Virus record (IMG/VR): IMGVR_UViG_3300021185_003947
Origin: a virus
Taxonomy: Duplodnaviria > Caudoviricetes
Length of the DNA: 64,000 bases
Direction: 5' to 3' (one strand)
Under the pieces are notes generated by a model. The model was not told the DNA's origin. It made no database searches and saw nothing but the letters and a program-made list of their open reading frames with translations. Positions 891 through 15,984 of the stretch are shown piece after piece. Every line of letters starts with the position of its first letter. The first letter of the stretch is position 1. A program made the translations under genes and the position numbers.

Positions 891-1787
891 TTAATCGTTA
901 ACTAAATTAGCAAAATGTGACATGATATCGTCTTCATCATCTGAACTAGCTACAGCACTCATTGCAGGTTCAGGAGCTGATTTAATAGGTGGCGCTACTT
1001 TTTCTTCTCCAAGGCTACGCTCTTGGGCCACAGTGGGAGCTCCAGCAACTGCTGATTCTCCAAGCACACTCATCAATTTAGTTTTTAGCTCTGTATAAGA
1101 CTTATACTTAGTAGGGTCAGTATACTCAGCCAAATCATGCATTGAATTGTAAATACCTTCAAGTTTTGCATCATCATCAGAAAGTACTTCTTGAGAAGCA
1201 AATTCTGATTTATCGTAGTTGCGATAACCTTCAACATCCCGAATTTTTAGTTTGAAGTTAGCACCAGTCCAAAAATCAAATGGATTGATTGGTTCTTCAT
1301 CTGCAAATTCTGGCTGCATTGCATCCATTAGTTTATCAAAGATTTTCTTACCATATTGATAGAGAAATACCTTACCTTCATTGGCAGGGTTACCCGGATC
1401 AGATACGATAAGAACGTTTGATACATAATGCAAACGACGTTTTTGGTTACGAGCGGTTGTCTTATCAGACTCAACACCACTATTCCAAAGACGGCTATTG
1501 ACTTCACCAACTGGATCATCTTGTCCAATAGATGTAAGTGATCGTTCAATGTACCATTTACCAGTTGGGCCTTTAAAGCCATGATCCCAATAACGAACCC
1601 ATGGCAACTCAGAACCTTCTGTAGCTGGGAGAAAACGAAGAACAGCATAACCATTATTCTGTTTATCGACTGTAGGTTTCCAAATACGATCATCTGTGTA
1701 TTTGTTTGTAGAACCGCCAGCAGATTCTGCTGCTGCTACAAGTTTATCAATTTGACCACGGTTCCGTTTTAGATTTGCAAAAGACAT
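891..1787 (-). CDS. gp32: Single-stranded DNA-binding protein gp32
   Basis: DDRIWKPTVDK...GYAVLRFLP, WVRYWDHGFKGPTGKWYIE, NPFDFWTGANFKLKIR and acidic tail, typical of T4-like gp32. Confidence 0.97.
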   Translation of the reverse strand: MSFANLKRNRGQIDKLVAAAESAGGSTNKYTDDRIWKPTVDKQNNGYAVLRFLPATEGSELPWVRYWDHGFKGPTGKWYIERSLTSIGQDDPVGEVNSRLWNSGVESDKTTARNQKRRLHYVSNVLIVSDPGNPANEGKVFLYQYGKKIFDKLMDAMQPEFADEEPINPFDFWTGANFKLKIRDVEGYRNYDKSEFASQEVLSDDDAKLEGIYNSMHDLAEYTDPTKYKSYTELKTKLMSVLGESAVAGAPTVAQERSLGEEKVAPPIKSAPEPAMSAVASSDDEDDIMSHFANLVND

Positions 1788-12812: not shown

Positions 12813-12922
12813 TGGCTCCAAGGGCAGGATTCGAACCTGCACGAATATAAATATTCTTTTGCTAAGACTATATATTCACAACATAAACAGTGCTGCGTGT
12901 CTACCTATTCCACCACCTTGGA
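12813..12922 (-). tRNA. Atypical tRNA-Asn(GUU)-like RNA with a 38-nt variable arm
   Basis: TCCAAGG/CCTTGGA acceptor + G73 + CCA; D-arm GTGGAATAGGTAGACAC; CAGCA-CTGTTTA-TGTTG anticodon arm; variable region 12841-12878; GCAGG-TTCGAAT-CCTGC T-arm. Confidence 0.85.
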
Positions 12923-12928
12923 TTATTC

Positions 12929-13753
12929 TTACTTTTTAAGAGTATCGATCGCGCTTATCATGCGTGTCATACCAATTCCACCACCAACTCTTGGAAAGAA
13001 ATCAAATTCAAGAAACTTTTCAAGTTCTGTTTCAACACGATCTTTACCAAATAATTGGTTAATAAGACCAGCATATTCTCCATTTGAAATAGTATGAAAT
13101 GTATCTCGCATTTGGTCTTTATCAGTACTGCGTTCTGCACTACCAATTGTTTCCATACCACCAAGGATAACATCAATCTTCTTACTTGTACCATCTTCAT
13201 TTCTTGACATATTCCAAAATGGACTTGTAAATTCAGGAAATTCTGTAATCATAGAACTACCAAAACTAGCTTCCATTGCTAACTCGTGCTGAGCATCTAA
13301 TTCTGTAGTAGAACTTAGACCGTAATGTTGTTGCCATTCACGATATGTTTTTTCTGTTGGAATATCAAATCCTAAGTGATTACATAATTGATATTCCATA
13401 GTCTTAAGATCATCGATGTCTCCTGGCATTTCAAATTCAAACATCGGAAAAATCGTATCATGTCTTCCAGGAATTGCATTTGGTTCTTGTCTATACGAAG
13501 TCGAGACACAAAAAAACCCCTTCGAAGAGGGGCGAGTTAATAATTCATATTCCAACCACATCTGGCCAGTTTGAGGAAGAGGCCATATTTGCCCTTCATA
13601 ATTATATGTTGCTACATTTTCTGGATCTTCACATGCAGCTAAAATGCTTAATCGGTTTTGTGTATGTACTTCTTCAAAGCCTCTATTCAAAAAAAATGAC
13701 CTTAAAAGGTCAACTGCTTTTGTAAATTTTTTTGGTTCAATCAATTGCGTCAC
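12929..13753 (-). CDS. Class IIb aminoacyl-tRNA synthetase catalytic-domain-only protein (AsnRS/AspRS-like; AsnA- or EpmA-like architecture)
   Basis: Motif 1 FFLNRGFEEVHT; motif 2 SYRQE..GRHDTIFPMFEFE; GMETIGSAER; motif 3 GGGIGMTRM; 274 aa with no N-terminal OB-fold. Confidence 0.88.
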   Translation of the reverse strand: MTQLIEPKKFTKAVDLLRSFFLNRGFEEVHTQNRLSILAACEDPENVATYNYEGQIWPLPQTGQMWLEYELLTRPSSKGFFCVSTSYRQEPNAIPGRHDTIFPMFEFEMPGDIDDLKTMEYQLCNHLGFDIPTEKTYREWQQHYGLSSTTELDAQHELAMEASFGSSMITEFPEFTSPFWNMSRNEDGTSKKIDVILGGMETIGSAERSTDKDQMRDTFHTISNGEYAGLINQLFGKDRVETELEKFLEFDFFPRVGGGIGMTRMISAIDTLKK

Positions 13754-14484: not shown

Positions 14485-14735
14485 GCTTTTATATCTACCC
14501 TTTTTGCTTCAACTTGTGGAATATGTGTTTTTCTACCATCAGCGCCATAAGTCCCATTATGTCCTTCATAAGATTGTGCTAAAGCTTTTTGTGGAGCCTT
14601 TATTGATTGTTCTGTTCTTCGTCGAATATTTTCAACAATATTCATTTGTTGTTCTTTTGCGGCTTGTGTCTTTACTATTAACTCAAGAGGTTGAGTAGCA
14701 TAATGGTGTGAAAAACCTGGTCCTTTTACTTCCAT
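14481..14735 (-). CDS. Hypothetical protein
   Basis: AGGAGG RBS behind tRNA-Leu. Confidence 0.65.
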   Translation of the reverse strand: MEVKGPGFSHHYATQPLELIVKTQAAKEQQMNIVENIRRRTEQSIKAPQKALAQSYEGHNGTYGADGRKTHIPQVEAKRVDIKA

Positions 14736-14753
14736 TTATAATCCTCCTTATTA

Positions 14754-14839
14754 TGGTGCTCTCACCCGGACTTGAACCGGGACGGCCTATGGCCAACAGA
14801 TTTTAAGTCTGGCGTGTCTACCTATTCCACCATGAGAGC
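14754..14839 (-). tRNA. tRNA-Leu(UAA)
   Basis: GCTCTCA/TGAGAGC, loop CTTAAAA, variable arm GGCC-ATA-GGCC, CCCGG-TTCAAGT-CCGGG, ACCA. Confidence 0.95.
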
Positions 14840-14859
14840 GTTATTGGTATTATTAATAT

Positions 14860-14935
14860 TGGTGCGAAAGGTAGGATTTGAACCTACGATCAACCCGTTA
14901 TGAGCGGGGGGCTTTAACCACTAAGCTACTTTCGC
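14860..14935 (-). tRNA. tRNA with CAU anticodon (elongator Met or Ile2, not resolved)
   Basis: GCGAAAG/CTTTCGC paired 1:72 (so not initiator), loop CTCATAA, GGTTCAAATCC, ACCA. Confidence 0.9.
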
Positions 14936-15103
14936 GAATTCTTCTACTACTTTAGCATTTAATAGATTAGCAACTTCAAGTGCTTTATTTTTGTTATCAA
15001 ATGTTAAATCGACTACAGTAGGTGTTTTATATATCATATATCCTAATTTACCAGTCATTACAACTTGTTGAACTATTTTATTATTTCTCATTAATTTATA
15101 CAA
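14921..15103 (-). CDS. Hypothetical protein
   Basis: ORF track; last 15 nt overlap the tRNA 5' end. Confidence 0.5.
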   Translation of the reverse strand: MYKLMRNNKIVQQVVMTGKLGYMIYKTPTVVDLTFDNKNKALEVANLLNAKVVEEFAKVA

Positions 15104-15129
15104 CTCGTTAATCCCTATATTAATAAATC

Positions 15130-15290
15130 AAAGGGGAGACCTTCTGCAGTGCCTCCCCTTCTATCTGCATTTTACGTATGCAGCAACCGGCTGAGTTTCG
15201 CGGTATCAGCGCTTGTACCGACCTATAGATCGGGGCCTCCAAAATCTATAGGGTTTCACTAACTAATCCCCTCATTGTTCATAGTTAGTG
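15130..15290 (-). ncRNA. Candidate structured non-coding RNA directly behind tRNA-Arg
   Basis: Five consecutive stems of 9, 9, 5, 6 and 7 bp, GC-richer than its surroundings, no ORF in the track. Confidence 0.6.
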
Positions 15291-15292
15291 TC

Positions 15293-15369
15293 TGGCGGAC
15301 CCTAGAGGATTCGAACCTCTGACCTAGTGCTTAGAAGGCACTTGCTCTATCCAGCTGAGCTAAGGGACC
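15293..15369 (-). tRNA. tRNA-Arg(UCU)
   Basis: GCTCAGCTGGATAGAGC D-arm, AGTGC-CTTCTAA-GCACT, AGAGG-TTCGAAT-CCTCT, GCCA; U3-U70 mismatch. Confidence 0.95.
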
Positions 15370-15379
15370 AATACTTATA

Positions 15380-15688
15380 TTATATTGCGAAACTTTCTCC
15401 ACATCCACATTGAGCTGTTGCTTGTGGATTTTTTACAACTAAATAGTTTCCACCTAGTTCGGTTATATAGTCAACCGTACAACCAAATAAAAACATTTCA
15501 GCCATAGCATCAATAACTAAAGTGCTATCTATAACTGTCCCTTTTGAGTCATCATCTACATATGTCCAATCATATTTAAACCCGCTACACCCGCCACCTT
15601 TTACTTCAAGAAGTACATAATTTTTATCAGCCAAAACTAACTGATTCGTCATATATTCTTTTGCTTTTTCAGTAAGTGATACAATCAT
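15380..15688 (-). CDS. iscA: HesB/IscA A-type Fe-S carrier protein
   Basis: KGGGCSGFKY and CGCGESF. Confidence 0.93.
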   Translation of the reverse strand: MIVSLTEKAKEYMTNQLVLADKNYVLLEVKGGGCSGFKYDWTYVDDDSKGTVIDSTLVIDAMAEMFLFGCTVDYITELGGNYLVVKNPQATAQCGCGESFAI

Positions 15689-15984
15689 TTCTGCATATAC
15701 TTCAATAGTTCTGGATTGTTAGTTTCTAGAACAACGAAATGGCCAAAATATTTTTCAAATACTTTTACCAATTTATAGTAATCTGTACCTGCACACATTT
15801 CAGACATAATAGGCGATGCTTTCATGCCCATTGAATGAGCATATTCTTTTGCTACTTTTAATAGATAAAATGCGTTACCATTAGGACCATCAAGGTCAAT
15901 AACTATCTCAGAAGCTCTTGTTGTTTTACGAATCATATTAAGGCACCGAATACATAAGGATTTCAAGATATTTGCACAAAGCAC
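15685..15984 (-). CDS. Conserved hypothetical phage protein
   Basis: IDLDGPNGNAFYLL motif; true start probably MIRKT. Confidence 0.7.
   Translation of the reverse strand: MLCANILKSLCIRCLNMIRKTTRASEIVIDLDGPNGNAFYLLKVAKEYAHSMGMKASPIMSEMCAGTDYYKLVKVFEKYFGHFVVLETNNPELLKYMQK

Follow-up and report, generated by a model that had tools for sequence, protein, structure and literature searches.

The question raised by this locus is what kind of RNA, if any, is encoded directly behind a tRNA-Arg gene in the DNA of an uncultured phage. The DNA analysed here, called the window in the following, is a stretch of 64,000 nucleotides from the IMG/VR record IMGVR_UViG_3300021185_003947 (Duplodnaviria; Caudoviricetes). 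A preliminary description had read five back-to-back stems on the minus strand at 15130-15290 and had proposed a new non-coding RNA or an attenuator. A direct check of the sequence found all five stems at the places given for them, and the ARAGORN call of the tRNA-Arg(tct) gene (15293-15369, minus strand) confirms that the element begins 2 nt after the encoded CCA. The features are collected in Table 1. One helix in it was absent from the original list of stems, the pseudoknot GCUGA/UCAGC (15210-15206 with 15194-15190), the 5' strand of which sits inside the P3 loop.

Table 1. Features of the element and of its close neighbours in the window
Feature	Position	Strand	Basis or remark
IscA/HesB-type iron-sulphur assembly gene	15380-15688	-	PF01521; directly upstream of tRNA-Arg
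tRNA-Arg(UCU), encoded CCA	15293..15369	-	ARAGORN; Rfam tRNA model 67 bits
P1, 9-bp hairpin	15290-15282 with 15265-15257	-	inverted repeat and compensatory changes
P1 loop, 16 nt, variable, contains AGGGGA	15281-15266	-	sequence
Conserved family core: J1/2 AAA, P2, P3 and pseudoknot, P4, P5	15125..15257	-	covariance model R1
P2, 9-bp stem	15252-15244 with 15230-15222	-	three covarying pairs
P2 apical loop	15243-15231	-	self-complementary GGCC at 15237-15234
P3, CGGUA with UACCG	15220-15216 with 15205-15201	-	four invariant pairs family-wide
H-type pseudoknot, GCUGA with UCAGC	15210-15206 with 15194-15190	-	bridge is A-rich CGAAAC
P4, 6-bp hairpin, loop ACGUAAA	15183-15178 with 15170-15165	-	5 of 6 pairs covary
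P5, 10-bp G-rich/C-rich stem	15160-15151 with 15140-15131	-	10 of 10 pairs covary
P5 loop, 10 nt, palindromic hexamer CUGCAG	15149-15144	-	self-complementary; covaries in family
U-rich tail UGAUUUAUUAA	15120..15130	-	sequence, directly 3' of P5; begins UGAUUU
60-aa ORF	14921-15103	-	between element and tRNA-Met; last 15 nt overlap tRNA-Met 5' end

The predicted folding energy of the 173-nt RNA is -57.6 kcal/mol, compared with -42.2 +/- 4.0 kcal/mol for dinucleotide shuffles (z = -3.82), and one out of 200 shuffles folded as well. The view that such a row of stems is not accidental is upheld by this value and by the finding that related phages preserve each of the five stems through compensatory changes. 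A 40-aa open reading frame overlapping the element at 15120-15242 was rejected as coding, because the changes seen in the relatives keep the base pairs and not the frame.

Related IMG/VR contigs were fetched by means of the IscA gene; of its 465 related stretches in IMG/VR, the majority have no copy of the RNA element in their vicinity. The record nearest to the window, an 18-kb fragment, lacks the element. In the close relatives (L001-L007) the element is found behind tRNA-Arg, and the same is true, in a diverged form, for a second group (L009, L011-L017; group 2 below). A pattern made from the invariant P3 region brought in over 70 additional viral contigs that share the core, among them what we call the main group. 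Thirty-eight of the collected sequences were used as seed for a covariance model, R1, with a core of 133 positions. R1 finds the element in the window with 138.9 bits (E 3e-41) as the sole copy there, and gives 62-69 bits to group 2, which is outside its seed. Altogether 59 family members came from viral contigs, and there were 30 R1 matches among the first 80 metagenome pattern matches, TARA scaffolds included. The IMG/VR and marine metagenome contigs together hold 84 distinct family sequences, with one copy per whole record, also in a complete viral genome of 221 kb.

One of the 80 pattern loci on genome contigs is real: L227, a genuine member on a contig binned with a Rhodobacteraceae MAG; the remaining ones are mostly chance matches. 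On L227 (60-180, minus strand) the family member is followed by an unusual tRNA-like sequence whose extra arm is long. L196 (26 bits) is G+C-rich coding-like DNA and was not accepted as a member. A divergent relative with 21 bits is found in L119 (3614-3733, minus strand); it keeps P3 and the pseudoknot (CAACUG/CAGUUG) and has a clear terminator at the end, its P2 is different, and palindromic loops are not obvious in it.

The preliminary description could not match the element to tmRNA, SRP, RNase P or 6S, and we found no Rfam family for it. Searches with the Rfam covariance models gave tRNAs alone, in the window at gathering score, in 14600-15800 at E<=10 and in nine family loci at E<=1. A blastn search of 50,697 cultured phage records found no counterpart to the core of the window or of L108, the tRNA-Arg part alone being matched. 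No description of such an RNA was found in the papers searched, two 2026 preprints on the discovery of non-coding elements included. A catalogue of 10,006 candidate viral RNAs has been drawn from IMG/VR (PMC10690425, published in 2023), and it may contain the family as a nameless motif. From these searches and the comparisons below we conclude that the element is a member of an uncatalogued family of putative non-coding RNAs, about 170-210 nt long with a core of about 135 nt, in uncultured marine T4-like or large phages.

The fold is preserved throughout the family. In the model-fitted alignment 97.2% of the cells are paired, versus 35-45% for slid partners, and 20 of the 33 pairs have changed on both sides; none of 500 shuffles equalled the pairing and covariation values, shuffle statistics overstating independence here as the alignments consist of related phages. 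A MAFFT alignment of the seed, made blind to structure, gave 96.2% paired cells and 17 pairs changed on both sides. Homologues with compensatory changes, for which the preliminary description had proposed a search, were thus found. P3 has 99% of its cells paired and four of its five pairs show no variation. The pseudoknot, with its 3' strand some 6-8 bases downstream of P3, was found by comparing the group of the window with group 2. Of its cells 98% are paired, and covariation is seen at two pairs of the scored helix. The strands are GCUGA/UCAGC for the window, ACUGG/CCAGU for the main group and CUCUG/CAGAG for group 2. Highly conserved unpaired nucleotides are UAGGUCGGU, the CAG of the pseudoknot 3' strand, the joining strand after this CAG and the AUA before P5, and the P4 loop starts with ACGU in 44 of 59 sequences.

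In the helices of the family G-U and U-G pairs outnumber A-C and C-A pairs 75 to 10, and the functional strand is therefore the tRNA-sense strand. An alternative P3 made with the second copy of GUCGGU was discarded, the repeat being missing in group 2, L115 and L116. Comparison of the P4 loop with the joining strand or with the P1 domain gave no consistent covariation. Taken together the comparative evidence shows a conserved RNA gene in tRNA islands, with a fixed strand and a pseudoknotted fold.

The part between the tRNA end and the core is of another kind. P1 is some hairpin at this place, and its sequence, length and loop vary widely. Comparison with L006, L009, L319 and group 2 reveals compensatory changes in P1. 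The loop length goes from 3 nt in L009 to 16 nt in the window and on to an inserted hairpin of 47 nt in group 2, and L006 and L007 have a loop unrelated to that of the window and without its G-run. In four contigs the tRNA ends 1 nt before the core, so that P1 is absent. In the main group (L108, L123, L125, L136, L145, L177 and others) P1 is replaced by a conserved two-tier domain about 45 nt upstream of the core, consisting of GGGGAAAGCC, a small hairpin and then AAACGUACCC; a predicted pairing of the ACGUA in this domain with the UACGU of the P4 loop might occur.

The sequence behind P5 differs too within the family. It is U-rich in the window and in many relatives, and reads CGAAAAC in a large subgroup. 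In that subgroup (L153, L154, L165, L179, L112, L115) a further conserved stretch free of open reading frames follows downstream, e.g., UAUUUUGAUCAGCGUCC..., possibly a further RNA module belonging to this RNA island. A simple terminator scan of the window did not call P5, because its loop exceeds 8 nt. With its U-rich tail P5 looks like a terminator-like end in the lineage of the window, where it probably ends or attenuates transcription as well. In six contigs (L013, L014, L096, L148, L151, L316) a tRNA gene starts 1-9 nt past P5, and therefore the idea that P5 is mainly a terminator does not fit.

The neighbours of the element were listed for 91 distinct contexts, four of which are weak antisense matches. 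A tRNA on the same strand is found within 400 nt in 51 of the 91, tRNA-Arg(UCU) being the commonest neighbour; Met, Pro, Ile, Leu and Trp also occur. No opposite-strand tRNA lies beside a genuine match, the two such cases among the 91 contexts being spurious antisense matches. [quoted passage not shown] The contigs concerned (L138 1629-2676 and 14 others) represent another lineage of marine T4-like phages. The window has its own gp32 homologue (903-1787, minus strand), with no copy of the element behind it. Since it carries this homologue and ribonucleotide reductase genes, the phage of the window is regarded as T4-like.

Downstream of the element in the window there follow the 60-aa open reading frame, tRNA-Met and tRNA-Leu. 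The 60-aa frame is conserved in L009 and L016 and absent in L013 and L014, where tRNA-Met starts 9 nt past the element; its start region contains TATAAATT (15100-15093), which is similar to a T4 late promoter. What lies downstream varies from one relative to another, so the element does not serve as the leader of a single gene. The tRNA island has other peculiarities. A tRNA-like gene of 107 nt at 12816-12922 (minus strand) scores 44.7 bits with the Rfam tRNA model and was not called by ARAGORN; its acceptor, D and T arms are normal, and the anticodon stem is followed by an insert or extra arm of some 35 nt. Close to it, at 12929-13753 (minus strand), a protein of 274 aa is encoded, whose sole match is the catalytic core of class II aminoacyl-tRNA synthetases (PF00152, D/K/N type). 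This protein may be an AsnA-like enzyme or a truncated synthetase paralogue beside the tRNA island.

Two loops of the element are self-complementary, and these carry the argument for what the RNA might do. When the mirror positions of the hexamer in the P5 loop are scored as pairs, complementarity holds in 177 of 177 cells and each of the three pairs covaries, the hexamers being CUGCAG, CCUAGG, CUCGAG or UGCA-centred. Among 16 distinct P5 loops of 9-11 nt, 15 have a palindrome of at least 6 nt, versus a mean of 1.1 and a maximum of 5 in shuffled loops; the P3 loop, used as an internal control, showed no palindrome enrichment. The central two bases of the hexamer are adjacent and therefore cannot pair within one chain. 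At the P2 tip the palindromes are GGCC, GCGC, GUAC, ACGU, UGCA, UCGA, GGUACC, GGAUCC, UGUACA or CUGCAG, and the tip is often a perfect 10-nt palindrome.

Within one RNA the palindromes of P2 and P5 usually differ, e.g., GGCC and CUGCAG in the window and UGCA and CCUAGG in L319, and for this reason the two loops are not each other's partners. An intramolecular kiss between P2 and P5, suggested by matching loops in group 2 and L177, was rejected as a general rule on the same ground, as most members combine non-complementary palindromes. Kretsch et al. have described palindrome switching in symmetric loops, and cryo-EM confirmed intermolecular kissing loops for OLE L9.3 and GOLLD L21a (PMC12286853). 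The pattern found here suggests pairing between separate copies of the RNA through the two loops.

The explanation which we prefer as a whole, and which we hold with moderate confidence, is that the element belongs to an uncatalogued RNA family of tRNA islands and of the gene 32 niche, and that copies of this RNA would associate with each other by means of the P2 tip and the P5 loop. The element would be transcribed together with tRNA-Arg, and its 5' end would be freed by the processing of the tRNA 3' end. The 3' end would be set by P5 and the U-rich tail or, where a tRNA directly follows, by RNase P cleavage. The P2 tip and the P5-loop hexamer would then join RNA copies into a dimer or a larger homo-oligomer, in the manner of the OLE, GOLLD and ROOL RNAs. 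As for excision, tRNAs abut the element on its 3' side in six contigs and on its 5' side in four, and tRNA-processing enzymes would therefore excise the RNA. One metatranscriptome contig spans the upstream gene, tRNA-Arg and the element without a break (15455-15156); as an assembled contig for which DNA carry-over is possible, it lends weak support to co-transcription. The four RNA-library runs consist of such assembled contigs, with adapter-like letters at their ends, from which the ends of the RNA are unreadable; parts of the stretch are not covered by these contigs, a gap that carries no weight.

A more detailed version of the preferred explanation can be formulated, namely that the RNA of about 170 nt is cut from a tRNA precursor by host enzymes and that two orthogonal loops build a defined homo-oligomer (a dimer, a ring or a small cage). 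The RNA would then be a minimal counterpart, evolved independently, of the nanocages of GOLLD and ROOL, and a common one among marine T4-like phages. This version is tentative, and we think it somewhat more likely to fail than to hold. A point against kissing is that a perfect 10-nt palindrome at the P2 tip would fold as a stem of 3 bp with a 4-nt loop, which is a poor kissing loop, so that an extended intermolecular duplex would be needed instead. The palindromes could also be sites for a dimeric protein. Furthermore, self-association leaves the four invariant pairs of P3 and the conserved joining strands unexplained; these speak for an additional role that depends on sequence, with a ligand, a protein or in catalysis.

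Other models for the element have been considered. It might be a 3'-end module that acts in cis, with the pseudoknotted fold and P5 ending transcription and shielding the upstream tRNA precursor or gene 32 mRNA from 3' exonucleases, and with no role as a free RNA. The G+C-rich P5 with its U-rich tail in the window and in many relatives is in line with this, both niches are heavily transcribed, and a terminator is to be expected in the gp32 lineages, where the next gene is convergent. A simple hairpin would suffice for such a task, however, and the invariant P3 pairs, the pseudoknot and the covarying palindromes would be left without explanation. One subgroup has no U-rich tail, a tRNA follows P5 within 1-9 nt in the six contigs named above, and in L096, L148, L151 and L316 the element stands upstream of the abutting tRNA, no tRNA being found upstream of the element. 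We therefore consider a pure 3'-end module unlikely.

In the attenuator of the preliminary description AGGGGA in loop 1 competes for the UCCCCU strand of the terminator and thereby sets the read-through into the downstream tRNAs. The second AGGGGA is indeed present in the window, and it recurs in L001-L005 and L093, where, with the help of G-U pairs, it remains able to bind the differing 3' strands of P5. The loop in which it lies is hypervariable, however, and the run is limited to the closest relatives: L006 and L007 have lost it, the L009 loop has 3 nt, and group 2 and the main group keep the core with an unrelated P1 domain or none. No competing pairing is thus conserved. A competitor lying 130 nt upstream of a local hairpin would presumably lose kinetically, and it would need to capture the 3' strand of the terminator and not its 5' strand. 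Control of read-through into the tRNAs also agrees badly with downstream genes that vary among relatives and with tRNAs that start immediately past P5. By this comparison the attenuator appears largely refuted, we give it hardly any chance, and the element is not, as judged from its relatives, a conserved terminator/antiterminator device. What stands of the original proposal of a new non-coding RNA or attenuator is a conserved structured non-coding RNA without an Rfam family. If the RNA acts as a monomer, it might be a decoy or an aptamer, in which a host or phage protein or a small molecule is bound by the core, and a dimeric protein by the palindromic loops. The four invariant P3 pairs and the highly conserved unpaired nucleotides would suit such a binding core, and the H-type pseudoknot with its A-rich crossing loop resembles ligand-binding pseudoknots. 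A riboswitch leader is an aptamer upstream of one class of genes, but here tRNAs, varied small open reading frames or a convergent gene follow, and no Rfam riboswitch model matched (14600-15800 at E<=10, nine family loci at E<=1). The palindromes vary freely and yet stay self-complementary, which fits RNA-RNA pairing better than a protein site. All in all this model is improbable. Self-cleavage is another way in which the RNA could be detached from the 3' end of the tRNA, as the HDV-like theta ribozymes of gut phages would do it; these are likewise structured RNAs directly beside phage tRNA genes (PMC10879173), and the start 2 nt past the CCA and the strongly conserved, pseudoknotted core speak for such a reading. 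The topology differs, however. In a nested double pseudoknot the first helix would supply the 5' strand, whereas here it forms a local hairpin whose loop varies, and some relatives lack it or have another domain in its place. No Rfam ribozyme family was matched (E<=10 in 14600-15800). The family is moreover not confined to the 3' side of tRNAs, being found upstream of tRNAs and behind gene 32 as well. A ribozyme is in our judgement extremely improbable.

The last alternative comes from T4 itself. The preliminary description had noted that T4-like phages encode stable non-tRNA RNAs inside their tRNA clusters, and this proved to be to the point, since rnaD and rnaC occupy the matching slot in T4. 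Like the element they are small non-tRNA RNAs of a T4-type cluster which share the strand of the tRNAs and come directly after tRNA-Arg(UCU), with rnaD starting 1 nt after the tRNA and rnaC following. They are stable RNAs, presumably released by tRNA-processing enzymes, and the role of the two, also named species 2 and species 1, is still unknown (PMC3014915). The identical position and strand, in a T4-like phage with a gp32 homologue, could mean that the element is a very diverged homologue of rnaD or rnaC. R1 matches nothing in T4, however, either in the tRNA region at E<=1 or in the whole record at E<=10, and positive controls were matched in the same kind of search. rnaC contains GGUUCGAAUCC, a tRNA-like T-arm, and rnaD ends in ACCA; the element has neither, and no match to the tRNA model was found within 15120-15292 at E<=10. 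Instead of these it has the pseudoknotted core and the palindromic loops. Homology to the T4 RNAs is therefore very improbable, though a shade less so than the attenuator or the ribozyme; the element is a positional analogue of rnaD/rnaC, and any homology would be one without similarity detectable by R1.

The closest parallels to the preferred explanation, a self-associating RNA, are GOLLD and ROOL, two RNAs that phages encode near tRNA islands. The kissing contacts that build the homo-oligomers of GOLLD are formed by symmetric loops with covarying palindromes, and in ROOL the loop is too conserved for that test (PMC12286853). The element resembles both in being phage-encoded and often situated beside tRNA islands (in 51 of the 91 contexts), and it shares the covariation of palindromes with GOLLD; its intermolecular contact and its assembly would follow by analogy from the sequence. 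GOLLD and ROOL are far larger, GOLLD often having more than 800 nt, and have many more helices and a nanocage, whereas the element with its roughly 170 nt is three to five times smaller. Their Rfam models gave no match in the window at gathering score, in 14600-15800 at E<=10 or in the nine family loci at E<=1.

Self-complementary hairpin loops are known also outside this group. Like the element, the HIV-1 dimerisation initiation site has a self-complementary tetramer or hexamer flanked by unpaired purines in a hairpin loop of 9-10 nt. In OLE L9.3, too, such a tetramer or hexamer is found in a hairpin loop, and its palindrome changes in evolution as it does in the element (PMC12286853). These molecules and their biology are unrelated to the element, the family of which has two such loops with different sequences.

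We place the family among the orphan structured RNAs of phage tRNA islands, of which T4 species 1 and 2, GOLLD and ROOL are known examples. It bears the evolutionary signature of covarying palindromic loops, which for OLE and GOLLD has been linked by cryo-EM to assemblies made of RNA only. Ocean samples contain the family in abundance, and it was absent from the 50,697 cultured phage records searched with blastn. Its small size makes synthesis, mutation and structural studies easy. If the RNA is self-assembling, RNA quaternary structure would not be limited to giant ornate RNAs, and the family would be a tractable model for what such phage RNAs do beside tRNAs.
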